Below, piece by piece: positions 5,084-63,203 of a DNA stretch of 64,000 nt. Every line of letters begins with the position of its first letter. The first letter of the stretch is position 1. The notes beneath the pieces are model-generated. The model saw only the letters and a program-made list of their open reading frames with translations, did no database searches and had not been told where the DNA came from. The DNA is from a virus: IMG/VR virus record IMGVR_UViG_3300045988_082903, positions 1 through 64,000 of that record; one strand, given 5' to 3'. The translations under genes were made by a program, and so were the position numbers.

Positions 5084-5085
5084 GA

Positions 5086-5463: not shown

Positions 5464-5614
5464 ATTTTCGCTTCCAGATTGTTATTTTTGATAGTATGAA
5501 CAGACTATAAATAGAATCCAAAATGCACATAAGCACAATGCGTTTTCAATGTAATAAATTCTAATAGACACAGTAACAGCGGCTAAAATCCATACAATTG
5601 TTTTGACGATGCAG

Positions 5615-25780: not shown

Positions 25781-26095
25781 TCTTTCATACCCAAATAATG
25801 GGCAATGAAAGGAGTTGTTTGCTTTGACCCAACTTTTGAATTTGCCCTGTTCCTTATTGTAGGTCGCAGGCAGAGTGAACTGCGTTACCAAAGTACGTTA
25901 AGCAATTTCGTTCACCGCATTGAACAAAATTCCTACATTCGCCAACTAATGGGCAGCTAATCTTTTTTCACTCAATCGCAGAACTAAAACTGCGTAAGTG
26001 GCGAAGTGTTTCAAGAAACATTTGGTGCTGCTTATGTGACTGAACAAGTGTGTTCAGTCTGCAAAACACATAAGGTAAACAAATTTAGGCAAGAA

Positions 26096-26126
26096 CTGAT
26101 AGGACAGCACTCCTGTCAGTTTTTTT
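26096..26126 (+). terminator. Intrinsic terminator oriented for the plus strand
   Basis: CTGATAGG / CCTGTCAG 8-bp stem (one G-U), 8-nt loop, then T7. Confidence 0.6.
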
Positions 26127-35729: not shown

Positions 35730-36446
35730 TCAAGCAATCATTTTAGTTGCTTCACTTTGAACAAATTCTTTAATTTGCTGATATCCCCATCCGCAATTAA
35801 TAAGGCTGCTTACAAGCATTTCCATATTTTGTACTTTTGCTAAGTCATCACCTGTGAAGAAATCTCTAAGATTTTCTTTTGCTTTTACCCCATAATCACT
35901 TTCAAGCTCTTTGGCTGTTTTTCCGAATAAATTACGATAAATTAAATTTGTGTAATTTGGATAAGCAAATCTTTTATTTTGGCTTTCCGTTATTTTCATC
36001 TTAATTGTATCTGTTAGGATATGTCGAATAACAACACCCTTGTCACGCTCGATTTGCCATTGCTGACGTTCTGTATGAATTCTTTTTAATTCAGATTCCA
36101 TTTTATTAAAAGCGTCAATGTATTTAAGTTTCCACTGTAATGCTTTTTCACCATTAAATCCCATGGCTAACAAGGAAAATCCATCTCTTGTTATAAGGTA
36201 TTCGGTATACTCACGATTGTTTTCTCCGATATAAGAAGTTTTTATAAAATAATCAGAAAGGGGGATATCTCCCCTTTGAGAAATCTGTGTTACAAGACCT
36301 AAATGTTTGGTTTTACCCTCTGCGTCAACTTGTCCTTCAATTGCCCTTATTACTTCCTTGTGCTCTTTTTCGAAAGATTCTGCGATTTTTCTTGACGTAG
36401 TAAGTAACTTTTCTTCGTATCTTTTTCCAACGATTTCTACCAGCAT
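35730..36446 (-). CDS. Rha-family phage regulatory protein
   Basis: LTTSRKIAESFEKEHKEVIRAIE...YLITRDGFSLLAMGFNGEKALQWKLKYIDAFN. Confidence 0.75.
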   Translation of the reverse strand: MLVEIVGKRYEEKLLTTSRKIAESFEKEHKEVIRAIEGQVDAEGKTKHLGLVTQISQRGDIPLSDYFIKTSYIGENNREYTEYLITRDGFSLLAMGFNGEKALQWKLKYIDAFNKMESELKRIHTERQQWQIERDKGVVIRHILTDTIKMKITESQNKRFAYPNYTNLIYRNLFGKTAKELESDYGVKAKENLRDFFTGDDLAKVQNMEMLVSSLINCGWGYQQIKEFVQSEATKMIA

Positions 36447-37224: not shown

Positions 37225-37965
37225 TTAAAAGAATCTTTGCTGTGCGTTTTCGTTGTCAATCAGTTCTGCCAGATAAATTGGTGGCTTGTAATCTTCAACC
37301 AATTTTACCGCTTTTTCGCACTGTTTACGCTTGATTGCCTTATATGTAGTCACGCCAAACTGTCTGCGCACCTCATTATGAATATCTCTATACAGCTTTG
37401 CTCTCAAGGAACCATTCTTATAGGCGTTGCTAGACTTTCCACCCAAGACTTTTGTTCCTTTTGATTTCACGGCATTTGTTACCTTATCCATTTCTACTCC
37501 AAGAAGCGGTAAATCCTGTTTAAAATCTTCCAATTCTTGTTTCACTGTATCAACTTTTTTCTCTACCTGGGTTACTCGCTTGTCTACTACGATAACTGCC
37601 TGTAATTCTTTGGAGATTCCAGAAAGAGCTGGATAATCATAGGTTCCTGTCTTTCTAATAGATGGCAATACTTCTTTTGTAACCCACGACTTAAATTTCT
37701 TTGCAGATTCTAGCTTGCTTCCGAAAATAAGGGCGTAAAGACCAGACTCGTTAATAAAGATGGTTTCCTGTATTCTTCCGAGAGAATCGGTGAGTCCCTG
37801 TTTCAGGGAATCATCTTCTTCAACGTGACTTGCAATAGCACCTAATGGTTTTGCGTACCCCAAAGATAAAGCCACATCTTTTCCAACAAACCAAGGTTCT
37901 CCGTCAATCATAGTTGTTCTGATATTTCCAAATTCTGGATTATTAAAAATCTATAACTCATTCAT
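37225..37965 (-). pseudogene. Bro-N family antirepressor-like gene with in-frame TAG at codon 5
   Basis: ATG AAT GAG TTA TAG ATT TTT AAT AAT CCA GAA TTT..; the paralogue at 23935 has CAG (Gln) at the same codon; remaining ORF 37225..37911 intact (GEPWFVGKDVA...FKSWVTKEVLPSIRKTGTY). Confidence 0.7.
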
Positions 37966-38485: not shown

Positions 38486-38962
38486 ATGCTAGTAAGAAAT
38501 AAAAAACAAGTGCAAAAATCTTTTAGAATTGACGAAGATGTTGAAAGAGATTTAGGGCTACTGTCACAGATCACAGGAAGAAGCCAAAATGAATTGGCGA
38601 ATGTTGCGCTTGAAGAACTGCTGCAAGATAACAGTATTCATTTTCTAAATATTGCAATATTGGAGCATTATGAAAGTGAAGTTGAAAATGCGGATGAAAT
38701 AGCACCTTTTATATTGGGAGGACTAGAAGTTCAGTTTGCCCCTGTTGACGGAACAAGTGAAATTGAAATTACAAGCATTGTTAGGGACGGAGAAAAAGAA
38801 CTTGATAGGTATACAAAGAGAATAGATGAATGCAACGGTAATGAACTTGAAAATTATCTTATGTCTTTAAGTATGTATATAGATGTAAAGGCAGAAGATA
38901 CTGTACAGTATTTGAAAGATAGAACGGATTATAGAGATTATGTAAAAGTAAGAAACAAATAA
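38486..38962 (+). CDS. RHH-N-terminal domain protein
   Basis: KSFRIDEDVERDLGLLSQITGRSQNELANVALEELL then an unknown domain; SD AAAGGAGAG. Confidence 0.55.
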   Translation: MLVRNKKQVQKSFRIDEDVERDLGLLSQITGRSQNELANVALEELLQDNSIHFLNIAILEHYESEVENADEIAPFILGGLEVQFAPVDGTSEIEITSIVRDGEKELDRYTKRIDECNGNELENYLMSLSMYIDVKAEDTVQYLKDRTDYRDYVKVRNK

Positions 38963-39101
38963 AAATAAGAGATTCCGTACCAACCAAAGTTAAGAATCTC
39001 TTAAATGATTCTGCCACCAAATAGGAGGCTATACAAATTATAACACTGTATGCCTCCTGTTTGCAAATGAAAATTAAAATTTCACAGGAGGATTTTTATA
39101 T

Positions 39102-39905
39102 ATGAATGAATTACAAAAAGTAGAATGTAATGGAATTATTGTTCTTACAACACAGCAGATTGCAGAAGCGTATGGAACTGATACCAAAATTGTTTCATAC
39201 AACTTCAATCATAACAAAGATAGATATGAAGAAGGAAAGCATTTTATTTGTTTAACCGGGAATGAACTTCGGGCGTTTCGTGAAAATCACGATTTGCCAA
39301 ATAACTTAAATAAAATCTATCTCTGGACAGAAAAAGGGGCTTTCCTTCACGCTAAATCTCTGAACACCGATAAAGCGTGGGAAGTATATGACGCACTTGT
39401 GGATAATTATTTCGAGAAGAAAAAAGAAGAAATTAATGTAAATCAGCTGTCCCCCGAACTGCAAATGTTCAATCAGATTTTCCAACAGGTAGCCAAGACT
39501 GAACTGGAACAGAAGAAACTTGCGGAACGTGCCGACCAACAAGAGGAAAACATGAAAACCATTATTGATACCTTTAAAGGAACGGATTCTGATGTTGGCA
39601 CAGAGAAATGGGTAAACAGATGTATTTCAAAGATTGCCGAGAGTGATGATTTCTCTTACTCATTCGGAAATAAATATGCCGCCGCCAGAAACGAAAGCTA
39701 CCGCAGATTATCAGACAGAGCTGGTTGCCGATTAGATCAGAAACTTAGAAATGCAATTTCCAGAGCTGAGGAAAGAGGTTGCACAAAAGAACTGATTAAC
39801 CAAATTAATAAACTTTCCGTGATTATGCAAGATAAGCGACTGAAAGAAATTTACATTGGCGTGATTAAAGAAATGATGATTGCATACAGAGTAGAAATTG
39901 CATGA
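39102..39905 (+). CDS. ORF6N/ORF6C-type antirepressor-like protein
   Basis: Paralogue of 24895..25716 (N-domain GIIVLTTQQIAEAYG...; C-terminal DRAGCRLDQKLRN..ERGCTK). Confidence 0.7.
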   Translation: MNELQKVECNGIIVLTTQQIAEAYGTDTKIVSYNFNHNKDRYEEGKHFICLTGNELRAFRENHDLPNNLNKIYLWTEKGAFLHAKSLNTDKAWEVYDALVDNYFEKKKEEINVNQLSPELQMFNQIFQQVAKTELEQKKLAERADQQEENMKTIIDTFKGTDSDVGTEKWVNRCISKIAESDDFSYSFGNKYAAARNESYRRLSDRAGCRLDQKLRNAISRAEERGCTKELINQINKLSVIMQDKRLKEIYIGVIKEMMIAYRVEIA

Positions 39906-42785: not shown

Positions 42786-44003
42786 TTAAGGTCTAAAATC
42801 ATGCTTTTTTCTTTCCTCGCTTTCATATTCTGCACATTTTTCGGCGCAAATAGTCCCTCCACAGGAAAACATAGCTTCTGGCATTTGCACTTTTTCATCA
42901 TATTCTTTGCCTAATTTAAGCATTGAAAACATATTACCATAGTCTTCTCTAGTAACACAATTTGACCAATATTTATTTGACGCATAATGATTTAAAAGTC
43001 TTAATCCTTGTTCGGTAGTTAAAACTGGGTGAGGTTCATTGTATGTTTGATAGTATTCCCTGTAATATTCTCTTAGCAATTCTGTGAAACCATTAAGGTA
43101 CGGAATTAAGCTAACTCTATTTTGCGGCGAATATCTTTCAGAAAAGAAATATCCATTATTTTCTAAATCAAGCCCATATTTAATATTTTTTATGCTCTTT
43201 TCGCCGTCAATATCTAGTATTCCTACAAAACATTTATCCATCATATAGTTTTGTGCAAATTTATCCTTATCAAATTTAACGCTTGGATATTTGACAAATA
43301 TCTTCAAATACCGTTTATTTTTCTTTTCCTCCGCAAAATCTTCTTCTGTGATTAAATATGTTTCAACATAATATTTTAAAAGTTTCGGATTAAACTCTAT
43401 TCCTCGTGATGTTAAAACTTTCTTGATATAATTGAAATAATAATTTGACTTATTATCCCCCTTTGAGTGATTAATACACACTCCTGGTATTTTTGAAAAT
43501 GCCATTACAATTTCATCGTATGAAAATTCTTTACAATATGATTTTACGGATTTTTCCATTGCGTCCATAATTTTATCTGCTGAAAATCTTTTCAACCAGA
43601 TTCCTATTTCTTTGCGTCCGTTATCGTTTACATCACACCCTGTCAATTGTTCAAAATATTCGGTTAGCATGTTTACTGCCATATTATCATAATCGAGTAG
43701 CTCTTTCTTCCATTCAGCAATCATTTCCAACTGTTCTTTTTTCTCTGCAAGATCTTTTAATGCTTCCTGTTGTAATGATATTGCTTTGGAATCTGAAATT
43801 CTAGTTTTGCCTTTTCCTCTATTACAATCGCGACACGAAGTAATTAAATTTGTAATCTCATCATCTCCGCCCTCTGCTACTGGCTCAATATGGTCTACTT
43901 CCAAAATTACGTCTGGTGACATTCGTCCACAATATTGACATGTGAATTTGTCTCTTTTGAATACTTCAAATCTGATTTTCTTGCTAAGTGGTTTTCTTGC
44001 CAT
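42786..44003 (-). CDS. HNH endonuclease fused to a roughly 300-aa unknown domain
   Basis: N-terminus CQYCGR...DHIEPVAEGG.D...NLITSCRDCNRGK; the C-part has a weak DnaD-like feel (WLKRFSADKIMDAMEKSV..YYFNYIKKVL), unverified. Confidence 0.7.
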   Translation of the reverse strand: MARKPLSKKIRFEVFKRDKFTCQYCGRMSPDVILEVDHIEPVAEGGDDEITNLITSCRDCNRGKGKTRISDSKAISLQQEALKDLAEKKEQLEMIAEWKKELLDYDNMAVNMLTEYFEQLTGCDVNDNGRKEIGIWLKRFSADKIMDAMEKSVKSYCKEFSYDEIVMAFSKIPGVCINHSKGDNKSNYYFNYIKKVLTSRGIEFNPKLLKYYVETYLITEEDFAEEKKNKRYLKIFVKYPSVKFDKDKFAQNYMMDKCFVGILDIDGEKSIKNIKYGLDLENNGYFFSERYSPQNRVSLIPYLNGFTELLREYYREYYQTYNEPHPVLTTEQGLRLLNHYASNKYWSNCVTREDYGNMFSMLKLGKEYDEKVQMPEAMFSCGGTICAEKCAEYESEERKKHDFRP

Positions 44004-44129
44004 AGATTAATACCTGCCTTTCGTATAAAAGAGTGCCTTGAACTGTATGTAAATCAACAGGCAGGCGGCAAGGCATTTCCGCTTTTCGATGATCGGTCTA
44101 GCCTGTTGGTTTTACCAAAATTAACGGTT

Positions 44130-50511: not shown

Positions 50512-50724
50512 CTACTCTTCTTTGTCTGTTTTCAGTTCTGGTAATCCTGCTACAGATGTAAGCAGTGATAAAAAGCCGGAAAGTAAAGACGCGGATAAAA
50601 CCATTTTCCAGTCAACACTGCCAATTACAGTTGCGGTTCCGATGGTTGCTATTGCTGTTTGTGCGACTGTTTTTACAGCTCTAATTCCTGCTGCTTTCAG
50701 CCAAAGTAATTTATCTGCTTTCAT
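50512..50724 (-). CDS. Holin-like two-TM protein
   Basis: ATG 50724 after AAAGGAGAA; AGIRAVKTVAQTAIATIG...LLSGFLSLLTSVAGLPE. Confidence 0.5.
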   Translation of the reverse strand: MKADKLLWLKAAGIRAVKTVAQTAIATIGTATVIGSVDWKMVLSASLLSGFLSLLTSVAGLPELKTDKEE

Positions 50725-50776
50725 TCGGCATTCTCCTTTCATATTTTTGGATAAAAAAATAGAAGCATTTCTGCTC

Positions 50777-51307: not shown

Positions 51308-51823
51308 TCAAGAAGAGAACACCTCTTTGGCGATTTTGCGGATATTCTGAATGATTTCTACGCTTGCCTTATACATTGGCATTGTAGCTTCTGTACCGTA
51401 AGAACGTACCCATTCGCCAGAATCAGATACATATACCCAGGAATCGTTTTTTCCTTTTCCTTGTCCGTAAGAACCGATTATATAACCAAATTCTTCTCCT
51501 TTTGGATGCGGACTAGAACCGGCTGCACCATTGTAGTGAATACCTGCACCGAATTCTATAAACAAAAGGTCTATTCCTTCACATATTAAATGAGCTTCTG
51601 CATAGTCCCCAAAACTGTTGATTTTGATATAAGTATTATGGTTCTTATCAGAATCGCCTTGTGCTGCCAAAATATTTTGGTCAATGACCGGAATCCCTAA
51701 TTCACATAATCTTTTTATGAAGATTTCATTTTTATTCCTTAAAGATTTTTGATAATTTTTTATTTCATCAATAGCTTTTTGGATTGATTTCTGTGATAAG
51801 GTACACTTTATTGTCTTACCCAT
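51308..51823 (-). CDS. Head-tail joining/tail component (position-based)
   Basis: ATG 51823 after GAGAGGAAA. Confidence 0.4.
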   Translation of the reverse strand: MGKTIKCTLSQKSIQKAIDEIKNYQKSLRNKNEIFIKRLCELGIPVIDQNILAAQGDSDKNHNTYIKINSFGDYAEAHLICEGIDLLFIEFGAGIHYNGAAGSSPHPKGEEFGYIIGSYGQGKGKNDSWVYVSDSGEWVRSYGTEATMPMYKASVEIIQNIRKIAKEVFSS

Positions 51824-52208
51824 CTTCGTTTCCTCTCTTAGAAATTCCGTATCTGGCAATATTGCCTTTTTGTGTGTCTAAAATCTTCTTTAGTGTGTAG
51901 TCTGGTAATACTGTTGGCTCTCCATTTTCATCCAAAATAAGGTTTCCATCCTCGCTTATTTGTGGGATTCTATCTATCCAAAATATGTCCGCTTCCTGTG
52001 GATGAAAATTTCGATTAAAGCTTGTAATATACCTGTCGTAATCTGGCACTATTCCGGCTGCAATTTCTTCCGTCGTTCCAGCAGTGGATGATACGGAAAA
52101 AGAGTATAAAACTGGTTTCTCATAAACTTTAATACGGTCTAATCCTTGTGTTTTCTCAGATATTCGTGACCAATATACCTTTTGCTTTTGACGGACTAAT
52201 CCTCTCAT
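51816..52208 (-). CDS. Head closure/adaptor-like protein (position-based)
   Basis: 130-aa ORF. Confidence 0.4.
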   Translation of the reverse strand: MRGLVRQKQKVYWSRISEKTQGLDRIKVYEKPVLYSFSVSSTAGTTEEIAAGIVPDYDRYITSFNRNFHPQEADIFWIDRIPQISEDGNLILDENGEPTVLPDYTLKKILDTQKGNIARYGISKRGNEDG

Positions 52209-52591
52209 GCAATCATCCTTTCTGCTCTAACAGGGGCTACATATGTGAATTGGTTTCCCAAAATATCTCTGGCCGTACCAATCACGAAATGGCCGTAGTC
52301 TGCCAGAATATTGCATACAAATTCCTCTGCGTCCACCCAATATCGTTTCTTGACCATGCGGTGAAGCTCTGGCAGTAAACCATAGCTGAACATCACGCAA
52401 TGACCTAATTCATGGATAAATACACGGTTCAGAAGTTCTCCATACAGGTTGTTTGCGATTGAAATTATCTTTGTTGAATAATCCGATACCGCAAGAGTTC
52501 TTTCGCCTGTGCGGTCAATTAACACGCTGTCGTGCGGAGATACGAACTGCACTCTCCATAGGTCTCCGTTCATATAAAATTGTCTTAGCAT
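52205..52591 (-). CDS. Small HExxH metallopeptidase-like protein 2
   Basis: FIHELGHCV motif. Confidence 0.55.
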   Translation of the reverse strand: MLRQFYMNGDLWRVQFVSPHDSVLIDRTGERTLAVSDYSTKIISIANNLYGELLNRVFIHELGHCVMFSYGLLPELHRMVKKRYWVDAEEFVCNILADYGHFVIGTARDILGNQFTYVAPVRAERMIA

Positions 52592-52609: not shown

Positions 52610-52942
52610 TCAAATTAACTCAAGTTCTTTGAATACTTCAAAAATCTTCGGAGATTGAATCGCAAACCAATCAACTGTGGTTTCATCATGTCCGAACTGT
52701 TCCATATGTTGCCAATTGCACTGCAATCCACTTTCCGACAAGAATGCATGAATAATTTCGTGTCTCAACTGCTTTTTCTGTAAGAAGTCAAAATCACCAA
52801 CGTTATTTACGTTGTCCGTTCTGATAACAATTTCCTTTGCAGTATTATCTGTAAAGCCGTCAATATCTGCATTTTTAAGTTCTTTTGGAATAATTCTGTA
52901 ATTCGTTCCAAGAACATTTATTACACATTTTTCCATCATCAA
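52610..52942 (-). CDS. Small HExxH metallopeptidase-like protein 1
   Basis: LRHEIIHAF motif. Confidence 0.55.
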   Translation of the reverse strand: MMMEKCVINVLGTNYRIIPKELKNADIDGFTDNTAKEIVIRTDNVNNVGDFDFLQKKQLRHEIIHAFLSESGLQCNWQHMEQFGHDETTVDWFAIQSPKIFEVFKELELI

Positions 52943-53002
52943 TCTCCCTAATTAAAAAGCCCCTGCTACATTCCTGTAACAAGGGCAAAATTCATTTCAT
53001 AT

Positions 53003-53629
53003 TCAATTCATCTGCTGTATCAGACGAGTTAAGTCGGTTTTCATCGACTGTCTAAGAGTCGCATCTGCATCTGACCACATCTCTGTAAGATTTCTGACGA
53101 TATCGGATGTATATTCTTTCATAGAATCATCCATCTTACGCTTGGAATCAGAATCTTTGGAATCATGGTAATGTCTGCGGTTCTCGCTGTATCTGTCATA
53201 GCTTTCACCATATCTGGACTGCTTATGGTTCATTCCATCCATTCTCATATCACTACGGTCTGGATGATAACCCATGCGGTACATATTACGTTCGAACTCT
53301 GGATTGTTCAGATACTCGTCCATCCAGTCATCATCTTCCATGTACAGATATGGTTTATATCCCATACGACTTCCTTTGCCTTTCGGGGCAAATCTGCCGT
53401 TTGCGTAACGATACCTGTCATATCCCATGCGACCAAGATATTTCTCTTCCTGTTCGCATTCGTCCATAGCTTCTACGATTCTGTAATCTTTATCTGCACA
53501 AATCGCACACTTTACAGCTTCCATGCAGTCTTTCAAATCGTCCCAGTCTTGAGCGCTGAGATTATCAAAGCCATGTGTTTTGGCTTTTTCCATAGCCCAT
53601 TTTCCCATTTCCATTGCTGTCTTATGCAT
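53003..53629 (-). CDS. Charged protein with RMGY repeats
   Basis: GRMGYDRYRY, SRMGYKPYLY, YRMGYHPDRSDMRMDGM; no family recognised. Confidence 0.55.
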   Translation of the reverse strand: MHKTAMEMGKWAMEKAKTHGFDNLSAQDWDDLKDCMEAVKCAICADKDYRIVEAMDECEQEEKYLGRMGYDRYRYANGRFAPKGKGSRMGYKPYLYMEDDDWMDEYLNNPEFERNMYRMGYHPDRSDMRMDGMNHKQSRYGESYDRYSENRRHYHDSKDSDSKRKMDDSMKEYTSDIVRNLTEMWSDADATLRQSMKTDLTRLIQQMN

Positions 53630-54053
53630 TCACGATACCTCCCCTCTTCGAAGCCTGTACAACATTTTCTGCTGTTGGGGCTGTACCATTGATTGCAGTC
53701 AGATTGTTATTCGGACTACATGCCGGATTTCCTAACATTTTGAACGCTCCACCAGTAGCACTTGTTGCAACTCTGGTTGCATATTTTGTTCTGGTTCTTA
53801 CGCCACAAGCTGTTACCTGTGCGCAACAACGATTCTCCAATGGATATAAAGTTGTTCCTGTTCCTATCTGAATCATCACTGGGGCGGTAATTGTGGTTGT
53901 ATTCGGAATAGACTGTGCTAAAACAATGCAGTATTTTTCTCCATTATTGTAGCTTCCTTCCGGGATAGTAACCACAAGATTTCCACCTGTGAATGCAATC
54001 GCAGTAGACATCACAAGGTGATTGCAAAGCTTACAAACATTCTTACATGCCAT
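53622..54053 (-). CDS. Cys-containing beta-rich protein
   Basis: MACKNVCKLCNHL..., internal RCCAQVTACG; no family recognised. Confidence 0.55.
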   Translation of the reverse strand: MACKNVCKLCNHLVMSTAIAFTGGNLVVTIPEGSYNNGEKYCIVLAQSIPNTTTITAPVMIQIGTGTTLYPLENRCCAQVTACGVRTRTKYATRVATSATGGAFKMLGNPACSPNNNLTAINGTAPTAENVVQASKRGGIVNA

Positions 54054-54131
54054 ATCTTTTACCTCTCAATCAATAAGAGGTGAGCCGAAACCCACCTCTT
54101 AGAATTTAGTCAACCTCTAAGGGTGAGTTAC

Positions 54132-54938
54132 TTAGCAACAACCATTACCATATGTGCTACATCCTGCGTACGCATATGGAGCCGGAACCTGGAATGCAGG
54201 AATCGGAGCCGGATTGATTGCATTGATTAACTGCTGTGTCTGAGAAGCCATTGCAGTTGTGAGCAATGCAGACTGGCGATCCTGGGATGCAGCACGCTTC
54301 AGATCAGAATTCTCTGCCTGTAATGTTGCAATCTTATCCTGAGTTAAAAAGTCTAACAGCGCACGAGTGTTGCTGTTCTGATTTTCCAGAATGTCTCTGG
54401 TGTTGTTGTTCATTGTGTTCTGCAATGCACAAGTGTTGGTAGCCAGATTGTAATTTACGCCCTGGATAGCTTCTCTGGTCTCGCAGCAACAGTTCTGGAG
54501 CTGTGCCTGTAATGCATTGGTATTCTGCATACCGGCTACAGTATCAGCATTGATTGCCTGCTGAATTCCGTTGAATCCTTGAAGCATTCCAACATTCACG
54601 CCGTTGAAACCGCTCTGCATGGTATTGTTAAGCGCATATGTGCTATCGCAAATACCCTGCTGAATACCTCTAATACCATTCTGAATATCATTCAGAGCAA
54701 AGCCCTCATTGATATCTGCTCTGGTAGCCCATCCTTGGAAACCTGCACCATTTGTACCGTTTCCACCATTGCCGCCCCAGCCACCAAAGCCGCCGAAACC
54801 GCCCCAGCCGAAGATTGCAAAAATAAGGACAAGCCAGATAAGGGAAAAACCATCGCCGCCCCACATGTCGTTTGCACGGTTATTAGAGCCTGTAGCGGCT
54901 GCAATGTCGCTAAGACTATAATTTGAACCATTCATCAT
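54132..54938 (-). CDS. Gly/Asn/Gln-rich membrane-anchored protein with CCC and terminal GCC
   Basis: TM LIWLVLIFAIFGW then GGFGGFGGWGGNGGNG, N/Q-rich region with NCCCE, C-terminal CSTYGNGCC. Confidence 0.55.
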   Translation of the reverse strand: MMNGSNYSLSDIAAATGSNNRANDMWGGDGFSLIWLVLIFAIFGWGGFGGFGGWGGNGGNGTNGAGFQGWATRADINEGFALNDIQNGIRGIQQGICDSTYALNNTMQSGFNGVNVGMLQGFNGIQQAINADTVAGMQNTNALQAQLQNCCCETREAIQGVNYNLATNTCALQNTMNNNTRDILENQNSNTRALLDFLTQDKIATLQAENSDLKRAASQDRQSALLTTAMASQTQQLINAINPAPIPAFQVPAPYAYAGCSTYGNGCC

Positions 54939-55032
54939 GTTTTTAGTCTCCTTAAATTTTATTTACAATAGGAGACATCCGCGGCTGTCATCCCAAATTG
55001 TAGCGATTTTAAATCACCCAATTATGGGGAAG

Positions 55033-55281
55033 TTATTTCATCCCTAAAAATTTTTCCAAAATTCCTTCGGGAGAAAAATTCTTTTCTTTAAATATATTTT
55101 GCTGAACTTGGTGTAATTGTTCTGTATCACCATGTTTGTATAAATCCAAAGCATTTTTCAATGTTGGATTGTTACCTGCAAATTTACTCATATCGTTCAT
55201 CATGTTATCAACACTTCCGAACCTCTGAGAAATCATTTGCTGAATTTTTTGTTTCATTATTGTGTTTGGGTTGAAATTCAT
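55033..55281 (-). CDS. Hypothetical protein
   Basis: 82-aa ORF, 4-nt overlap. Confidence 0.5.
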   Translation of the reverse strand: MNFNPNTIMKQKIQQMISQRFGSVDNMMNDMSKFAGNNPTLKNALDLYKHGDTEQLHQVQQNIFKEKNFSPEGILEKFLGMK

Positions 55282-55766
55282 CTCTGATTACCTCCCTTCT
55301 GTGTCTTGGGCGGTTCAGATTGTATTGGCAATAATTCTTTAATTTCGGAAATCTCTGCGTGAACATCATCACGAAGTTGGTTAATCAGCGAAACAATATC
55401 AACTTGATTTGTCTTATTGCTTTCTGGTTGTTCTCCTTCATTTACAAGTCTATAAGTGAAAATTCGGCTTCTGCCATCTGCCTGTAACTGTTTTCGGTAA
55501 ACTTCTGTACCGTCAGTTTTTGGATAATAGACAGGGTTTCCAGACATATCTACGTCTTTTGCCTTTACGGTATCAATACCATCAACCATCTGTCCTTGCA
55601 ACATGGGGATTTGTGGTACTTGTGGCATTTGTTGTATTGGTTGCTGAATCTGTGCCTGTCCGTATGGCATTGCCTGCTGATAACTATTCTGCAATTGTGC
55701 TAATCTATCTTGATACGGCTGTATTTGTTGAAATGGTTGCGCAAAATACGGATTACCATACTGCAT
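55278..55766 (-). CDS. Protein with Q/P-rich low-complexity N-terminus
   Basis: QPFQQIQPYQDRLAQLQNSYQQAMPYGQAQIQQPIQQMPQVPQIP then a globular part. Confidence 0.55.
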   Translation of the reverse strand: MQYGNPYFAQPFQQIQPYQDRLAQLQNSYQQAMPYGQAQIQQPIQQMPQVPQIPMLQGQMVDGIDTVKAKDVDMSGNPVYYPKTDGTEVYRKQLQADGRSRIFTYRLVNEGEQPESNKTNQVDIVSLINQLRDDVHAEISEIKELLPIQSEPPKTQKGGNQR

Positions 55767-55824
55767 ATCTCAAACCTCCCTTGTTTTTATAACTATATTT
55801 TACAATAATAAGAGGTTGATTAAC

Positions 55825-55853
55825 ACGCCACGATAACGCCATAAATACGCCAC
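55825..55853. repeat. Three ACGCCA(C/T) direct repeats at exact 11-bp spacing
   Basis: Starts at 55825, 55836 and 55847, upstream of 55278..55766. Confidence 0.85.
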
Positions 55854-55856
55854 GTT

Positions 55857-56096
55857 TTATGAATACAAAGAAAAGCCCCGACAATACATCGGGGCGACTT
55901 TCATAATTTTCTTCTTTAATTTTCTGTTTATGCGGTCTACGGTTCTTGTGCTGTAGCCCATGATTTCTGAAGCTTCTGCAAGTGTTTTTTCTTCGTAAAC
56001 ACGCAATCGGAATAACTCTTTTTCTCTGGAATCAAATCCAGCTTCACGCAAATAGAAGATTCTTTCATCTTCCGAAAAGTCTTTATAATTATCCAT
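55857..56096 (-). CDS. Small sigma-70 region-4-like HTH protein
   Basis: ATG 56096 seven nt after GGGAGGA; REKELFRLRVYEEKTLAEASEIMGYSTRTVDRINRKLKKK. Confidence 0.6.
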   Translation of the reverse strand: MDNYKDFSEDERIFYLREAGFDSREKELFRLRVYEEKTLAEASEIMGYSTRTVDRINRKLKKKIMKVAPMYCRGFSLYS

Positions 56097-56127
56097 TCCA
56101 CCGTCCTCCCTGTTAGTGGAATCAATA

Positions 56128-56439
56128 TTACACCGGGAAAATGCCTTTAAGAGCAAAACCTAAAACAATACCAATTATTCCAGTTATAACATAAGCAATA
56201 ATTTTGTCCTGTAATTTTCCTGGCTTTTCCATGAGTGCTTTTAAATTGTCGTTCATTTCGTCAACTGTATCTTTGATGTGTCCCAGATCGTTGTTGTATA
56301 AAGCAATTTTCTGTTCTAGCGCATTGATACGATTAAAAAAGCCTTCATCCCTTTTGGAATGCTTTTCTTTCATCTCATGGACGGCACTTTCCAATTCTTG
56401 CAAGCGGTGTTCGTTGATACACTCGTGTTCACATCCCAT
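56128..56439 (-). CDS. XhlA-like coiled-coil protein with C-terminal TM anchor
   Basis: Coiled coil then IIAYVITGIIGIVLGFALKG. Confidence 0.45.
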   Translation of the reverse strand: MGCEHECINEHRLQELESAVHEMKEKHSKRDEGFFNRINALEQKIALYNNDLGHIKDTVDEMNDNLKALMEKPGKLQDKIIAYVITGIIGIVLGFALKGIFPV

Positions 56440-56546: not shown

Positions 56547-56867
56547 TTAGAATCCGATAAATGGAAAAACACCATGATTTACATAGATTTCAGTTTCGGA
56601 AGTCCAATTTCTGTTTACAGAAGATTCGGAATGTGATCCTTGGAATTCAGCTCCCTGTTTCACCAGAAAGAAAAGAGCCAAATCAAATATGCAATCATAG
56701 CAGTTTTCCATATCGGAATTTATTTTCTCATCACTGTAAGATGAAGGATAATTCCTTTTCTTCTTAAATGAACGAATAGCCCTCTTTGCCGAAAGAGGAA
56801 TCATCCTCGCAGTTTCTGCATCATCTTCAAGATAATTTGTCAAATCCTCTATAAGCTGTTCGTCCAT
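56547..56867 (-). CDS. Head-tail connector (gp6-like)
   Basis: 106 aa after the capsid gene; LIEDLTNYLEDDAE...AIRSF pattern. Confidence 0.6.
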   Translation of the reverse strand: MDEQLIEDLTNYLEDDAETARMIPLSAKRAIRSFKKKRNYPSSYSDEKINSDMENCYDCIFDLALFFLVKQGAEFQGSHSESSVNRNWTSETEIYVNHGVFPFIGF

Positions 56868-57075: not shown

Positions 57076-58113
57076 TTATTCCCCCGCCTTGGTACCGATA
57101 ACGATACCGCCGTTAGCTTTTGGTGCAACAGGAACAAACATACCAGACGCTTTTGTCCATACTGCAACTGGGTCTGGTGTAGCCCACATGGAAAGAGTTA
57201 CGAAAGAACGGTTCTCTTCCTGGATGAACTGTCTGTATTCCGTTTCCTCTGGAGTTACGCCCCAGAGACCAACACCGAAGGATCCGTCGGCATCTGCTTC
57301 ATACAGAGTAAATACATCCTCTTTGAAGAATCTGGCTGTTTTCATAGTTCCATCTGCTTTTCTAAAATTGAATTTCTCATCACAACGATCAATTGTGATT
57401 TCATATTCCTGCATAAGCAGATTTGCAAGTTCCTGCTTTGTGAGAAGTCTCTTATTTGCAGCACCCAGAACAGCTGTCTGCATTGCAGTATTGTTCCGCA
57501 TATAGTTGATCATTTTAAGAGAAGTTACAGCCTTGTTTACTACATAGCCATTGCCTTCTGCTACAGCTACCATTTTTTGGATATCGCCCATGATATCTGA
57601 ATCTGGCTTAGACCAATCGGTAAGCGTTACTTTTGCACTTGCTGGAACTCCATAGTCAATTCCCATATCAACATGGTTCTCTTTGATTGTTACGGCACCG
57701 GTAGAAAGGAACTGTCCTTTCATAGCATTTGCTCTGGCAACAACGCCATCAAACAGGCCGGCTGCATCATTAAATACAAAGTTTTTCAGTGCTTCATTAT
57801 CCGGCACGCCGTTTTCAATTGCCTGCTGCAATCTTTCAGATTGATTGATTTTCCTCTTGATAAAGAGCTTTTCGGTCAGGACTTTTTCAAATCCAGGTCT
57901 TGTACCGATTTCTGCTTCGGTATCAAGAGCATGAACAAATGCAACTTCCGGGAGATTCTGTCCAGCCATAAGTCTGTAATACTCTGCTTTCAGATACTGG
58001 GTTTTTGTATCTGGGAAAATGGTATCGAGGATACCTGGTCTTTTAACGCTGAAATTCTGAGAGAAATTAAGTCTTTCTTCTTGGGTGATTGATTCTAAAA
58101 TATTAAATGGCAT
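57076..58113 (-). CDS. Major capsid protein
   Basis: 345 aa after scaffold and decoration-like genes; resembles the capsid protein E-type family (memory-based). Confidence 0.8.
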   Translation of the reverse strand: MPFNILESITQEERLNFSQNFSVKRPGILDTIFPDTKTQYLKAEYYRLMAGQNLPEVAFVHALDTEAEIGTRPGFEKVLTEKLFIKRKINQSERLQQAIENGVPDNEALKNFVFNDAAGLFDGVVARANAMKGQFLSTGAVTIKENHVDMGIDYGVPASAKVTLTDWSKPDSDIMGDIQKMVAVAEGNGYVVNKAVTSLKMINYMRNNTAMQTAVLGAANKRLLTKQELANLLMQEYEITIDRCDEKFNFRKADGTMKTARFFKEDVFTLYEADADGSFGVGLWGVTPEETEYRQFIQEENRSFVTLSMWATPDPVAVWTKASGMFVPVAPKANGGIVIGTKAGE

Positions 58114-59304: not shown

Positions 59305-60777
59305 TCATTCTTCGTTAGATGGAGAATTTGCCATTGGTTCTGTTTTGGACGGATTCTGAAATTTTTCATCCAGTAGTTGTTGAGCTTTCTTCATTTCCGC
59401 TTCCGGGTCTGCCAGTTCCGGGTAAATAGTTCCCAGATACGGTAAACTCATTTCGTAGACTTTCTGCGGATCACTAAATAGCCCACAAGTAATCAGTGCG
59501 ATAAGCGGATGGATTTTATTTTTGAACAGATAATCAAGTGCTTGTGCTTTTACAAGCATATTGTCTGTTGGGTTTCTGGTTATCTTTACATCGAAATCTC
59601 GAGTTGAGATATTAACATCATTTGATGTACCACGGATAATATTCAGAATAATTCTAGCAGATTCCTTTTCGGCTTCCTTGGTGAATGCTTCTACCAATTT
59701 TGCATCTCTCTCTGCGAAGTCCCATCCATTACGAAGGTATACGGCATTTCCTGTATCTCCTCCGCTATTGCTTTGTCGGTTTGGCATTGCTTCCACAATC
59801 AGCATATTATTGTAGATATCATCCTTTGCAACCTGGCTCTCTGATTGATTCAGTTCAGCGGTCATAAGTTCAACATCCGACTGACAGCCATTTCCAGTGT
59901 CTTTAACAGAGATAGCACCAAGTTTTACCATTTTCAAAAACTCGTTTTCGTCTACCTCGCAGTTTTTAAATTTCATAAAGGCTTGCACAAACTGTTCCAC
60001 GCCATTTAATCTATCAGACTGGTATTTGTTGATTGCATCAAATAAGGTGATTGCAATTTCAACGTCTGATAGTCTGTCGTGATTATTCGGGCATTCAACA
60101 ATAGGAATCCCGCCAAAACCATTGATGCCGTAGTTGGTTACTTTTCCATTCTTGATTTCAAAAAACTGGTTCTTTGAATAACATAAATAATATTGCTGTT
60201 CGTCTTCATCCTTTAAAATCTGAACGGACAGCATTGGTTTCCCGTTTCTCTGCGAATATACAATGTAACAATCACCTGGATATGGGATGAAAATTCTAAA
60301 CGGTGGTAAATCTCCGTTTTCTGTCCAGTCCTCTTCTTTCAGAATAGCCTTATAAGAAGTTCCTGTTGCACTCTGGTATATTGCCCTTTGGATGTTTCTT
60401 GCATCTGCATTGGCTTCATCCAAATAGTCATTCAGAAGGTCAACTTGCTCATTTATTTTTTCATCTGCATTTTTCTTTTTACATACATATTGAATTGGCT
60501 CCCCACAAATCTGTCCAGCTTTAAATTTTACAGTTTCAAACGCGTGATTTTCAACCACTCTGTTATTAACTTCTGGACGGACTATTTTGTTTCGGTATAA
60601 TATCGGCTGATCGCCTTTCATGTACCGATACAAGTAATCAATTAATGTTCGGTTTCTATTATGTATGCCAATTGTATCTGATACTACTTTTACTACATTT
60701 TGTGGAGTGATTCGGTCAACGCCTGTGTAGGCCACTTTTCGCCCGAACTCACCTCGGCATAAATCTACAAAATTCAT
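59305..60777 (-). CDS. Portal protein
   Basis: About 490 aa between the regulator/terminase and the scaffold; start ambiguous (ATG 60777, GTG 60789 or ATG 60801). Confidence 0.8.
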   Translation of the reverse strand: MNFVDLCRGEFGRKVAYTGVDRITPQNVVKVVSDTIGIHNRNRTLIDYLYRYMKGDQPILYRNKIVRPEVNNRVVENHAFETVKFKAGQICGEPIQYVCKKKNADEKINEQVDLLNDYLDEANADARNIQRAIYQSATGTSYKAILKEEDWTENGDLPPFRIFIPYPGDCYIVYSQRNGKPMLSVQILKDEDEQQYYLCYSKNQFFEIKNGKVTNYGINGFGGIPIVECPNNHDRLSDVEIAITLFDAINKYQSDRLNGVEQFVQAFMKFKNCEVDENEFLKMVKLGAISVKDTGNGCQSDVELMTAELNQSESQVAKDDIYNNMLIVEAMPNRQSNSGGDTGNAVYLRNGWDFAERDAKLVEAFTKEAEKESARIILNIIRGTSNDVNISTRDFDVKITRNPTDNMLVKAQALDYLFKNKIHPLIALITCGLFSDPQKVYEMSLPYLGTIYPELADPEAEMKKAQQLLDEKFQNPSKTEPMANSPSNEE

Positions 60778-60808
60778 TGTATTTCTCACGAGCCGAACCA
60801 TCCTTTCT

Positions 60809-60844
60809 GAAAAATAAAAAGCACTGGATATTTTAATCCAATGC
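60809..60844 (-). terminator. Promoter-proximal intrinsic terminator (late cassette c)
   Basis: Minus strand GCATTGGAT taaaat ATCCAGTGC then TTTTTATTTTT. Confidence 0.7.
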
Positions 60845-60854
60845 TCTACTTTAT

Positions 60855-60899
60855 ATTTTACACATATTGGCGGTATCATTCAGTATACTTCGGTATCAT
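60855..60899 (-). promoter_or_regulatory. Late-promoter-like cassette c
   Basis: Minus strand ATGATACCGAAGTATACTGAATGATAC - 6 nt - TATGTGTAAAAT; the box overlaps the stop codon of 60896..61318. Confidence 0.6.
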
Positions 60900-61318
60900 C
60901 TTTCAAAACCTTTTATCTTTTTTACTTCTGCCAAAGCTTTTAAGTGTTTTTTCTTAATATGTATTTCAGAATAACCCATCTCATCTGCAATGCGAACCAA
61001 AGATTTGTACTCAACATAGTGCTTAAATAATATGTCATATAGTAATGGATCTTCAACCTGTTCTATGGTTCGGACTATTTCTTGTCTTTTTTGTAAAAAT
61101 TCAGATATCATTTCTGAAATCTCTTCTCGCAGATCAAATATCTTCGCAATCATATCTCCCATCGGATCACGTTTTACAGAAGTTTGTACCTTTTCTCCAA
61201 CAGGAATTGCAGATACACTTGTGGAAAGAGAACTGAGCTGTTCTTCTTCGATAAGCTTGTTTTTGATTCTGTTATCATAATTTTCAATCTGGCGTAAATA
61301 TTGAGTTGCAGTCATCAT
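60896..61318 (-). CDS. Sigma-region-4-like late regulator candidate (DUF1492/ArpU-RinA-like)
   Basis: 140 aa; C-terminal YDILFKHYVEYKSLVRIADEMGYSEIHIKKKHLKAL HTH; N-terminal coiled region. Confidence 0.6.
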   Translation of the reverse strand: MMTATQYLRQIENYDNRIKNKLIEEEQLSSLSTSVSAIPVGEKVQTSVKRDPMGDMIAKIFDLREEISEMISEFLQKRQEIVRTIEQVEDPLLYDILFKHYVEYKSLVRIADEMGYSEIHIKKKHLKALAEVKKIKGFER

Positions 61319-61321
61319 ATT

Positions 61322-63064
61322 CTATCTCCTTCCCCACATAAAATTTTTGGTTGCTTTTACTTCTGCAAATCTTTTTCCAGCAAGTGTTATTGCAAGCTGT
61401 GTAACTCCATCTGCGGCGTCATCATGCTCATTATCGCCAATATATACAAAGGTCGTTAATTCATCCATAGCCTTTTGATACTGCTTGTCTTGATATTTCG
61501 GAGCCAAAAATATGAAATTCTGCTTAACATCCCCGGAATACTGATTTATTTTTTCTTTTTTTGCTTGTTTTGAAGGTGCTTTTGTACTTGTCGTGCTGCA
61601 AGCGTATTTATGTTCCTTCAACCGTTCATTTACATAATAGGCATACATATCTCCACCATTATTCGCTTCAAAATTAATGGATTGAATATTATTACCCATG
61701 ATTCTTCCAACAACTAATGGCAATGTTCCTTCTTTTGGCGCTGTGCTAAAAATCCAGTCATATATATACACATCTCCATTTTCGTATTCTGCACCCACTG
61801 GCATTGATAAGCTATCGCCACCACCCCACGCAACATCGCAAGCAGAAACATTTTTAACAAATCCACCTTCTGGAAGAACGCCGTTATAATATCTCAATTC
61901 GTCAGCTGCAAACACAATTCCTTCACGTAAGAAGGGCTTTTGCTGATATTTGGCTTCCCATTCGTTAGCGTCTAACCTAGCTTTCATATCGACATAATAT
62001 TTTGTTGAAAATCCAACGCCATACTCATAATCGAAATTCGATTTACCTTCATCATTCAAAGCTGGAATTTTTCTAAACCGATACATTGGATTATCGTGAT
62101 TTAGCTTCTCGATTTTTCCGAGAGGGTCATATAAATTCCATCTAGTTCCAACCATAAGCTCCCTTGCGCCGTCAATCTTACGGTCAACCATCTTATTCAG
62201 ATATTCTTGATATGTATTTTCTAATCGGGTGGGGCTTAATGAATGTTGTCTATCTCTTACAAGGTCATCCACGTACAAATACCCATCAGAAGAAATATCA
62301 ACGGCACCCGTCCAAGTTCCTTCAATACCACGGCAAGTCATTGTTGCAAATCTGTCTGGCTTGTCCAGGTTTATTTCAAAATCATCAGCACTCTGTTTTT
62401 GAAGTTTCGACTGTGGAAAAATTTCACTGTAGTTATATTCCTGTGTATTAATGAGATTAAGAAGTTCTCCGTAAAATCCTTTTGCCAGCTTTCCAGAATG
62501 ACCACCCATGGCACTATGGCTATTCGGTCTTTTACCCATTATCCAAGACATAAAGAAAATACACATAGTAGATTTTCCAACACGGCTTGGAAGCGATAAA
62601 CCATAAAACTCTATCTTTCTTTCTTCCAAATCTTGTAGGTCTTTGGCTACCACATGTAGTGTTTTTCTTCGTGGAATATAAAATTTCTTGCTGTCTGGTC
62701 TATTTTTTTCCATATAAAGCAAGTAACTTTCAAATAAATGTGGTGCTTCTAGTAACAAATACTGCCAGTAGATATCATCAAAATCACCACTGCCAGTTAA
62801 TGCGGCACACTTCTCTGCTATGTTATGTGAGTATTGACTTACTTTCATAGCCATTTTCCGTGCTTCTTGGTTCTTGTCGAAAGGAAGGTCAATATTCATA
62901 TTTAAGAGCAAATCAAGGCAATCTTTTTGATTCTGATAGATTGTCATGTCACTACTGATAATCTGATTTAGGACCGTCCGATACCATTCAAGCGAACCTT
63001 CTGTGAATTTTTGCATAAAAAAAGCCAGACCTCCTTTCATTTTAGGATTTAGTCTGGCTCTCAT
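61322..63064 (-). CDS. Terminase large subunit
   Basis: Walker A SRVGKST, C-terminal nuclease-like part; start uncertain (63064, 63040 or 63016). Confidence 0.85.
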   Translation of the reverse strand: MRARLNPKMKGGLAFFMQKFTEGSLEWYRTVLNQIISSDMTIYQNQKDCLDLLLNMNIDLPFDKNQEARKMAMKVSQYSHNIAEKCAALTGSGDFDDIYWQYLLLEAPHLFESYLLYMEKNRPDSKKFYIPRRKTLHVVAKDLQDLEERKIEFYGLSLPSRVGKSTMCIFFMSWIMGKRPNSHSAMGGHSGKLAKGFYGELLNLINTQEYNYSEIFPQSKLQKQSADDFEINLDKPDRFATMTCRGIEGTWTGAVDISSDGYLYVDDLVRDRQHSLSPTRLENTYQEYLNKMVDRKIDGARELMVGTRWNLYDPLGKIEKLNHDNPMYRFRKIPALNDEGKSNFDYEYGVGFSTKYYVDMKARLDANEWEAKYQQKPFLREGIVFAADELRYYNGVLPEGGFVKNVSACDVAWGGGDSLSMPVGAEYENGDVYIYDWIFSTAPKEGTLPLVVGRIMGNNIQSINFEANNGGDMYAYYVNERLKEHKYACSTTSTKAPSKQAKKEKINQYSGDVKQNFIFLAPKYQDKQYQKAMDELTTFVYIGDNEHDDAADGVTQLAITLAGKRFAEVKATKNFMWGRR

Positions 63065-63203
63065 GTGGCTCTCTTGACTTTTCTTTTTGTTTTTTGTATT
63101 CTAAATATTTTTCAAAACTATATTTTTCACAATATCTACAATTTTCTAATCCATCTGGTTATGGATGTATACACGGAATGTTTCTTAATTTGAACCATAC
63201 AAT

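Follow-up and report, generated by a model that had tools for sequence, protein, structure and literature searches.

What are seven genes without a recognizable virion family doing inside the late operon of a phage? The question is raised by a virus genome from IMG/VR (record IMGVR_UViG_3300045988_082903), of which positions 1 to 64,000 were analysed; this whole stretch of 64,000 nt is called the window here, and coordinates refer to it unless a locus is named. A first-pass annotation had placed seven genes (g1 to g7, 53003-56439, minus strand) between connector and head-closure genes, and had offered for them a capsid or cell-surface decoration, a disulfide-linked assemblage, or a lysis or exclusion function. 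All seven open reading frames (ORFs) and every sequence feature listed with them were confirmed. We show that the region is a conserved, mobile and dispensable module with exchangeable parts and its own regulatory signals, and that it is not part of the head-completion pathway. The functions on offer were too broad to be scored, and we narrow them to an accessory mobile module with g5 as a putative membrane anchor and g6 as a protein with a modelled fibre-knob-like fold; our favoured reading, a tentative one that we place somewhat short of an even chance, is that the module builds an anchor-stalk-knob complex acting at the membrane of the infected cell.

That unrelated gut phages exchange a conserved, self-regulated module of seven to nine genes suggests a need which viruses share in the gut and which is not yet understood; the crossing of host phyla by the module strengthens the argument. 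No protein of the g5 or g6 families has been named, had its structure solved or been given a function, and finding that function would allow thousands of hypothetical proteins from gut viromes of humans to be annotated. Our literature search found no description of the module, and no paper mentioning DUF7841 (a domain of unknown function), which we regard as the sole Pfam family linked to it and which belongs to an alternative form of slot 7, not to the window.

Conservation of the Gene Order

Family searches with Pfam, PHROGs and NCBIfam gave no connector, head-closure or adaptor match and no other virion family for g1 to g7, in line with the earlier statement that none is a standard virion protein; the homology to head-completion proteins that would have contradicted that statement was not found. 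For g3 to g7 there was nothing in Pfam, NCBIfam or the defence models of PADLOC. In PHROGs, g3 and g5 each belong to a family and g7 matches one weakly, all three function-less, and g4 and g6 have none; PADLOC returned weak coiled-coil noise for g1 and was blank for g2 to g7.

The question of whether the genes belong together could be addressed through g5. From an alignment of its homologues (A2), 80 viral and 80 genome loci were fetched and all their ORFs searched with iterated hidden Markov models (HMMs); 40 dereplicated loci have adequate flanks and g5 proteins less than 75% identical between loci. The genome records with g5 are mostly from gut Clostridia (Lachnospiraceae, Oscillospiraceae, Ruminococcus, Faecousia and others). 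Across the 40 loci the order is near-invariant: a helix-turn-helix (HTH) protein, a Q/P-rich protein, a protein of ~80 amino acids (aa), g5, a beta protein of ~140 aa and an R/Y-rich protein, and it persists down to 37-45% g5 identity. The genes thus recur together outside the phage of the window, a check that the first-pass annotation had proposed, and because this co-occurrence is kept across 40 dereplicated loci the cluster is far from chance. Among named phages, Butyrivibrio phage Ceridwen has g2, g3, g5, slot 6 and g7, and the Clostridium perfringens phages CPD1 and 17DYC have g1 to g6 (HMM E-values 1e-9 to 1e-25); XP41-N3, HMD-PC1, PMQ04 and CPQ4 were found via g5, XP41-N3 and CPQ4 via g6 too.

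The location of the module is less constant than its content. In its commonest position it lies between Phage_min_cap2 and the scaffold gene, in the order terminase, portal, Phage_min_cap2, module, scaffold, major capsid (at least 9 of 55 loci). A second context, that of the window lineage, has the module after major capsid and connector and before head closure; in a third, ~12 of the 55 loci, it follows a tail fibre or Amidase_2 endolysin gene and precedes an opposite-strand integrase. The C. perfringens and Bacteroides phages carry it outside the structural block, beside anti-repressor or recombination genes. The placement between connector and head-closure genes, as first described, therefore holds for the window lineage but not elsewhere, where other genome positions are seen.

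Presence and absence in close relatives can be followed in the C. perfringens phages. Phage phiCP39-O keeps g1 and g2 without g3 to g6, in flanks 96-98% identical to those of 17DYC; since this phage exists without g3 to g6, the core is dispensable for building these phages. Four others (phiCP26F, 13O, 34O and 9O) gave no g5 match with ~61% of the region covered, and probably lack the core too. The isolated carriers CPD1, 17DYC, Ceridwen and Bacteroides uniformis phage C3_41T2LP, together with the natural knockout phiCP39-O, make the module directly testable.

The region has the marks of an autonomous insert: terminator-like hairpins, upstream repeats and an 11-mer (these predicted), the presence/absence pair, and an atypical GC content (45.6% across g5 at 54-55 kb, the maximum of the window, in a neighbourhood of ~37-40%). 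Head-completion genes would be expected at a fixed position in every related phage, and neither the varying position nor phiCP39-O agrees with that. That the genes are chance neighbours (morons or ORFans) or divergent head-completion proteins is barely credible: most of the proteins have no annotated relative and the window places them between neck genes, as such a reading would have it, but the order retained at low g5 identity, the three types of context and the failure to match any head-completion family speak against it, and co-occurrence together with the natural presence/absence pair refutes it. A search for a plasmid reservoir gave one weak match only.

As a terminator-bounded unit between conserved genes, present or absent in close relatives and deviating in GC, the module resembles the morons, a concept from the HK97 and lambda literature. 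Unlike these it is far larger (7-9 genes) and internally modular, and its promoter element resembles a phage late promoter, not a constitutive prophage promoter.

The Core Protein g5

Read from the N-terminus, g5 begins with an acidic tail and a single hydrophobic helix. A stretch rich in Gly and aromatic residues leads into a helical shaft rich in N, Q and A, and behind it come a PxPAY motif and a tail rich in Gly and Cys; CCC and NTRD in the shaft are invariant in the alignment. The window protein has its hydrophobic segment at residues 33-51, followed by GGFGGFGGWGGNGGNG, NCCCE and a terminal GNGCC. It matches phrog_16490 (E=5e-69), and its family comprises at least 7996 clusters at 90% identity; relatives of g5 and g6 are called “hypothetical” where the source names them, and most are nameless. 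The helix is kept in 144 sequences, crAss-like and C. perfringens phage homologues included, with a mean Kyte-Doolittle value of 2.16 over 15 residues, and the tail before it has a mean of 3.35 D+E against 0.97 K+R. The shaft has an 11-residue signal; NT motifs stand at residues 168, 179 and 190. Sequence and profile searches of the PDB with g5, g6, g3 and the alternative slot-6 family returned noise only.

Two kinds of lysis protein were considered for g5. As a holin it fails, with 268 aa, only 10 K+R and 17 D+E in total, and a charge-poor, N/Q/A/G-rich C-terminal part of ~215 residues. With i-spanins (Rz) and class I viral fusion proteins it has in common an N-terminal hydrophobic Gly-rich segment, a long helical region and conserved cysteines, and the crAss-like homologues are auto-annotated “spike protein/glycoprotein”; unlike these it has no heptad periodicity and no sequence or profile match, and its hosts are mostly monoderm, chiefly Clostridia. 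An i-spanin is further contradicted by the lack of a lipoprotein partner, no ORF with a lipobox being noticed on reading the module translations, in which no lipobox search was run.

Exchangeable Proteins in Slot 6

The slot downstream of g5 (~130-160 aa) is filled in 38 of the 40 loci by one of two protein types, the g6 of the window (17 loci) or a BclA_C-like protein (21). Window g6 begins MACKNVCKLCNHL and has 8 Cys; its family has 3232 clusters by single-sequence search and 5008 by profile search, with 383 representatives at 50% identity. An AlphaFold2 model built from 103 sequences is a beta sandwich with a predicted local distance difference test (pLDDT) of 80-91 over residues 11-110; an earlier model from 28 sequences had a pLDDT of 47, and its fold search was meaningless. 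The better model has no significant neighbour in the PDB, the best being a Pseudomonas phage baseplate/tail-fibre chain at E=0.12. In BFVD, once members of its own family are set aside, the matches carry annotations as tail fibres or collagen-repeat proteins (E 1e-5 to 1e-3, query-normalised TM-score 0.42-0.51); the modelled fold resembles that of the distal knobs on phage fibres. A further match is a 294-aa DUF7841-annotated protein of a crAss-like virus, which, going by the model, may link slots 6 and 7.

The alternative proteins match BclA_C (PF18573) with E=4e-7 over profile positions 13-127 of 128, the best score of 30.3 bits lying under the Pfam cut-off of 38. In one locus (L140) a Cys-rich N-terminus precedes the BclA_C-like domain, and further variants match BclA_C weakly. 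We rejected the idea that g6 is a divergent BclA_C, as hhalign gave 1% probability against the alternative family and Pfam gave no match. Nor is there a sign of the endospore appendage protein Ena: g6 has no match to DUF3992 or DUF4183 in Pfam at E≤0.1, and its profile no match in the PDB.

The proposed arrangement of anchor, extended stalk and small distal beta-sandwich knob is that of the Bacillus exosporium protein BclA and of TNF/C1q-type ligands, in which the knob is a trimeric jelly roll, and the knob slot matches BclA_C in 21 of the 40 loci. In contrast to these, the module would have its stalk and its knob on different proteins, with an N/Q-rich helical stalk in place of collagen and a membrane helix as anchor, and all BclA_C scores fall below the Pfam threshold; from BclA it differs further in that window g6 has no detectable BclA_C sequence relation and that the module occurs in phages of non-sporulating Bacteroides.

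Low-Complexity Proteins and Putative Peptidases

Three further proteins of the module are largely of low complexity. The first, g3 (17% Q, 9% P), has a Q/P/Y-rich low-complexity N-terminus, a beta domain of ~60 aa and a C-terminal helix; it matches phrog_21718 (E=1e-18), and 38 of the 40 loci have a homologue directly upstream of g5. An alignment of diverse g3 proteins (A3) found no relative in Pfam or the PDB. The g4 slot holds an ORF of 60-100 aa in 32 loci, of which the g4 HMM recognises 17; the homologue in CPD1 scores E=1e-15. In the CPD1 locus (L169), an ORF that on reading resembles a homing endonuclease (4603-5253) splits the module between g4 and g5.

Slot 7 is occupied in 37 of the 40 loci. 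In window g7 the two ends are helical and the centre is of low complexity and rich in R, Y, G, D and M; RMGY recurs at residues 67, 88 and 118, and the motif NGRFAPK is present. The alternative form joins an R/Y-rich low-complexity region to a C-terminal DUF7841 (E down to 1e-34), and the two have the motif NGR[YF]AP alone in common. On reading the sequences we saw no signal peptide in g3, g4, g6 or g7, for which no predictor was run.

Two small genes downstream of g7, H1 and H2, carry the HExxH motif of zincin-like peptidases. H1 matches phrog_1233 (E=3e-19), H2 matches phrog_1233 (E=1e-9) and phrog_13742 “peptidase” (E=1e-3), and in Pfam the pair yields DUF6782 alone (E=0.078). HExxH genes follow slot 7 in several unrelated loci, and an H2-type gene is directly after g7 in five loci (L117, L154, L116, L093, L122); the counterpart in C3_41T2LP, a weak match to the H2 HMM (E=6e-4), was annotated by its depositor as a PolyVal metallopeptidase. 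Elsewhere a different gene, g0, encodes a protein of ~126 aa with a conserved Asp-Cys...His...Asp pattern and a papain-like look. Among the 37 loci with full flanks, g0 is present in 24 and an H1/H2-type HExxH gene in six, and no locus has both. Because the two types are mutually exclusive we assign H1 and H2 to the module, which probably reaches to 52205 and so includes both HExxH genes; H1 is a probable accessory peptidase.

In loci L004-L008, which are close relatives of the window phage, variable inserts of 523, 405 or 58 aa and an opposite-strand ORF of 85 aa lie between the H2-type and head-closure genes; next to the module there thus seems to be a hotspot for cargo at this junction (~12.7-15 kb of each locus).

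Peptidases and low-complexity proteins bring to mind packaged cargo. In packaged polyvalent proteins, for which autoproteolytic processing has been proposed, the zincin-like metallopeptidase is the domain met most often (PMC5512222). On this account the proteins would be packaged in the capsid and leave it together with the DNA; g5 would enter the recipient membrane by its hydrophobic Gly-rich segment and the low-complexity proteins would pass the tail unfolded, while the small peptidase processes them as proposed for MuF-linked polyvalent proteins. The commonest position of the module, directly after Phage_min_cap2 and before the scaffold gene, would suit this, as would the stand-alone zincin-like or papain-like peptidases that accompany the set and the three proteins of low complexity. 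We nevertheless consider ejection improbable: a compact beta-sandwich knob is a poor substrate for it, the module is often distant from the head genes, no MuF fusion was found among the fusions inspected (which resemble assembly chimeras), and there is no similarity to known ejection proteins.

Distribution Beyond Clostridia

The module recurs in Clostridia gut phages by the thousand, and diverged versions are seen in the C. perfringens, Butyrivibrio and Bacteroides isolates and in crAss-like phages. Homologues of g5 are found in crAss-like phages (cr116_1, cr52_1, cr53_1, cr1_1 and others), in C3_41T2LP and in viruses assigned to Methanomassiliicoccales. The protein of both cr116_1 and C3_41T2LP has the same hydrophobic helix, CCC motif and PxPAY-Cys tail, and its neighbours are a beta-rich Cys protein, a beta-domain/coiled-coil protein resembling g3 and an R/Y/E-rich peptide. 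HExxH genes stand one on each side of this layout in cr116_1 and one at its end in C3_41T2LP; the latter also has a DUF7841 protein (E=5e-16), which cr116_1 does not.

The module is found in phages of Bacillota and Bacteroidota, and g5 in archaea-assigned viruses; with this spread a generic lipid anchor fits better than a specific docking site on one capsid type. Roles tied to spores or to a Gram-positive wall are ruled out by the reach of the module into phages of Bacteroides, which is not an endospore-former. The idea that these are lysogenic-conversion or spore-surface genes, remodelling the exosporium or cell surface of Clostridia lysogens, draws on a Cys/Tyr/Gln-rich composition that recalls spore-coat proteins, on slot-6 variants matching BclA_C, on hosts belonging mostly to Clostridia (a class that includes spore-formers) and on the ~12 loci between lysis genes and integrase, a classic moron position. 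We hold it to be very unlikely: the hosts of the crAss-like and Bacteroides phages do not sporulate, crAss-like phages are not known to lysogenise, the promoter element is common to the terminase operon, and no DUF3992, DUF4183 or GerQ family was matched. A spore coat, exosporium or Ena protein as the general role was dropped on the distribution and on these absent matches.

One virus assigned to Methanomassiliicoccales (Caudoviricetes sp. vir215, locus L172) has its g5 homologue at 4878-5759 of the locus, annotated phrog_16490, with a hydrophobic helix (by reading) and two CCC motifs and without the Cys-rich tail. The other module genes are absent there, and g5 lies between reverse transcriptase and integrase genes.

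An XhlA-Like Protein and a Putative Regulator

The first gene, g1, is an optional member, with a homologue within 4.5 kb upstream of g5 in seven of the 40 loci. It matches phrog_937 “hemolysin” (XhlA-like) over its full length (E=1.4e-14), gave weak coiled-coil families only in Pfam (E≤0.1), and has its hydrophobic peak at residues 80-98 (Kyte-Doolittle 2.23); small, with a coiled coil at the N-terminus and a membrane helix at the C-terminus, it fits the build of XhlA. Features in common with a lysis cassette of the XhlA type, as in PBSX and SPbeta, are this PHROG match and the position in CPD1, 17DYC and phiCP39-O, in which g1 adjoins holin and amidase genes and directly follows them. Against such a cassette, g1 in the window is not beside lysis genes, the endolysin (Amidase_2 and CW_7, 28221-29027) being ~25 kb off, it is missing from most loci, and phiCP39-O retains g1 and g2 without g3 to g6; we know of no lysis cassette with a counterpart of g3 to g7.

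A 76-aa protein of the r1t-type holin family (PF16945, E=8e-13) is encoded at 50512-50742 on the minus strand, amid head-tail joining genes and far from the endolysin; in close relatives the equivalent ORF carries PF16079 (Phage_holin_5_2). Beside the endolysin (minus strand), on the opposite strand, lies a gene for an AgrA-like response regulator with receiver and LytTR domains (27492-28193, plus strand), and in four unrelated loci (L162, L149, L153, L126) an AgrB-like gene of borderline significance (E=4e-5) is directly upstream of the module; these hint at quorum-sensing-type genes in the phages concerned.

The HTH that had been attributed to the cluster as its own is borne out. The g2 protein matches Sigma70_r4 (PF04545, E=7e-7) and, in region 4 only, TIGR02937 (E=9e-9); the match covers residues 42-79 of 99, and region 2 is missing. 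As region 4 alone matches, we regard g2 as a region-4-type HTH and not as a sigma factor. A homologue lies upstream of g5 in 29 of the 40 loci, and g2 is a putative activator of the unit g3 to g7. It is no paralogue of the other region-4-like ORF of the window (60896-61318), to which it has no similarity.

At the end of g2 and ahead of g3 lie several predicted signals (Table 1). A hairpin with a T-run at the end of g2 has similar counterparts just 5' of g3 in some other loci, by reading of the sequences. Downstream of it are the phased TGGCGT repeats, the second feature earlier credited to the cluster; they stand up to scrutiny, since the two-copy pattern with zero mismatches matches here alone in the window (in two overlapping registers), and with up to two mismatches it has seven matches, a number reached by none of 100 shuffles. 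The repeats are kept in a related locus (L067), and are a putative regulator-binding site. An 11-mer, AAAATATAGTT, is a candidate late-promoter element; its only other exact copy in the window, at 63116-63126, is ~52 nt upstream of the terminase large-subunit gene and sits in a longer similar stretch. With terminators, repeats and 11-mer taken together, g3 to g7 look like a separately initiated unit of late type, as far as such signals can be read from the DNA. A generic sigma-70 promoter scan showed no enrichment (13 sites against 16 expected). In a comparison of k-mers shared across loci, Dulem virus 35 alone repeats its g3-upstream motif, upstream of the portal gene; the comparison was mostly uninformative, as the terminase regions lie outside the fetched flanks.

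A Proposed Membrane-Anchored Complex and a Rival Virion Appendage

Three observations lead us to favour action at the infected-cell membrane: in the g5 family nothing is as well conserved as the hydrophobic helix, a lipid anchor is portable among phages with unrelated virions, and the module lies outside the structural genes in several phages. Beside g5, g1 is a second membrane protein. In the complex as we picture it, g2 would switch on g3 to g7 alongside the late genes, and g5 would enter the cytoplasmic membrane of the infected cell via its single conserved helix. The N/Q-rich shaft would oligomerise, probably as a trimer, and the Gly/Cys-rich tail would dock the Cys-rich knob of slot 6 (g6 here, a BclA_C-like jelly roll elsewhere) through a link that could rest on metal or on disulfides; g3, g4 and g7, of low complexity, would join, and a small peptidase (H1/H2 here, a papain-like protein elsewhere) would mature the whole. 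An acidic N-tail on g5, and partners that carry no obvious signal for export, make it probable that most of the complex would be assembled on the cytoplasmic face. Late in infection such a complex may serve in egress or the timing of lysis, in exclusion, in the tethering of progeny, or in adhesion once the cell has lysed.

Several points weigh against this picture. One expects to find a fibre knob on a virion or a cell surface and would not look for it on a membrane's cytoplasmic face, and if the C-terminus of g5 faced outward the knob and the low-complexity proteins would have no obvious export route. Both flanks of the g5 helix are acidic, so that topology is not settled by charge. The shaft has a weak 3.6-residue (alpha-helical) periodicity and no heptad signal; a heptad coiled coil was rejected for g5, the 3.5-residue signal being absent. 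The C-terminal tail of g5 shows no co-variation with the type of protein in slot 6. The ~9 of 55 loci inside the head-gene block and the late-type promoter would fit a role in the virion equally well. Finally, in two database proteins an SGNH esterase domain is joined to the g5 shaft, an architecture typical of virion fibres; of the database fusions this pair of variants is the only one that may be real, most others (g6 joined to terminase-, integrase- or cell-wall-hydrolase-like fragments) being apparent assembly chimeras by reading.

The main rival is accordingly an optional virion fibre: an appendage of head, neck or side, in which g5 is a trimeric shaft attached by its N-terminal region, slot 6 an exchangeable adhesin binding glycans on hosts or gut mucus, and the remaining proteins assembly factors. 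Besides the esterase fusions and the late-type promoter, it gains from the likeness of the g6 fold to annotated tail fibres, from the BclA_C-like alternative and the swapping of unrelated knob families in one slot, which is typical of receptor-binding modules, from the frequent location among head genes, from partner proteins that would need no export, and from crAss-like and Bacteroides homologues auto-annotated for instance “outer capsid protein/viral fiber”; dispensability is compatible with an optional decoration. We think it a serious but doubtful alternative. A strongly hydrophobic helix throughout a family is unusual for a fibre docking on a soluble capsid, and decoration proteins normally co-evolve with their capsid, whereas the module is found in very different phages (one of the Crassvirales, Clostridia phages with unrelated layouts, archaea-assigned viruses) and, in the C. 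perfringens and Bacteroides phages, outside the structural block; nor is it obvious why a virion part should need its own regulator and peptidase.

The nearest known arrangements for such a fibre are the pairs gp37/gp38 of T2 and stf/tfa of lambda, likewise a two-gene shaft and exchangeable distal protein with unrelated tips swapped in one slot, and the modelled g6 fold resembles BFVD proteins annotated as tail fibres. The differences are the membrane-type helix of g5, the lack of sequence homology, and the company of an HTH, three low-complexity proteins and a peptidase. The resemblances to fibre-adhesin pairs, BclA/TNF ligands, morons, XhlA cassettes and spanins are all architectural only.

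To return to the membrane-anchored complex, a bolder form of it, which we think a long shot, would have gut viruses of Bacillota and Bacteroidota, and in the case of g5 also viruses assigned to methanogenic archaea, share a horizontally exchanged module that sets a spike of anchor, stalk and exchangeable knob on the infected-cell membrane. Such a spike would be for viruses of prokaryotes what surface glycoproteins are for enveloped viruses of eukaryotes, and without involving the virion it may serve adhesion, membrane remodelling or spread from cell to cell.

Layout of the Window and Other Features

The late operon runs on the minus strand from the terminase large subunit (61322-63064) through the small region-4-like ORF, the portal (59305-60879), the scaffold, a 114-aa ORF and the major capsid (57076-58113) to a connector-like ORF (56547-56867), g1 to g7, H1 and H2, a head-closure-like ORF (51816-52208) and the tail genes; roles were assigned from translations and from Pfam marks on close relatives. 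The connector-like ORF, the one flanking ORF covered by the scan, had no match in Pfam or PHROG, and head closure is a putative label.

Table 1. Genes and predicted regulatory features of the module in the window.
Feature	Position	Strand	Description
g1	56128..56439	-	103 aa, XhlA-like
g2	55857..56156	-	99 aa, sigma-70 region-4-type HTH
Terminator-like hairpin and T-run	55875..55895	-	9-bp stem, 6 GC pairs, then TTTTCTTT; overlaps last g2 codons
TGGCGT direct repeats	55825..55852	-	three phased copies, 11 nt apart; putative regulator-binding site
11-mer AAAATATAGTT	55791..55801	-	candidate late-promoter element, ~25 nt 5' of g3 start codon
g3	55278..55766	-	162 aa, Q/P/Y-rich
g4	55033..55281	-	82 aa, N/Q/M-rich
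g5	54132..54938	-	268 aa, TM (transmembrane)/Gly/Cys core protein
g6	53622..54053	-	143 aa, Cys-rich beta protein
g7	53003..53629	-	208 aa, three RMGY repeats
Strong intrinsic-terminator-like hairpin	52959..52986	-	12-bp stem, 6 GC pairs, then TTTTTAATTA; immediately 3' of g7
H1	52610..52942	-	small HExxH (HEIIH) protein, zincin-like
H2	52205..52591	-	small HExxH (HELGH) protein

Outside the module, two structured RNAs were recognised: a full-length FuFi-1 RNA (RF02986) at 25938-26125 on the plus strand, scoring 138 bits against a gathering threshold of 59.6 and located where the strand bias flips, and an int-alpA RNA (RF02996) at 44036-44108 on the minus strand, with 45 bits against 35.8, which adjoins the 3' side of a 1594-aa tape-measure-like ORF. 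Among the tail-region genes are those for a BRO-N/ORF6C protein (37225-37911, minus strand) and a Rha regulatory protein (35730-36446, minus strand), and near them two plus-strand ORFs (38486-39905) at a reversal of the GC skew. An HNH endonuclease gene (42786-44003, minus strand) and a NUMOD1-type homing endonuclease gene (29167-30177, minus strand) are inserted in the late region.

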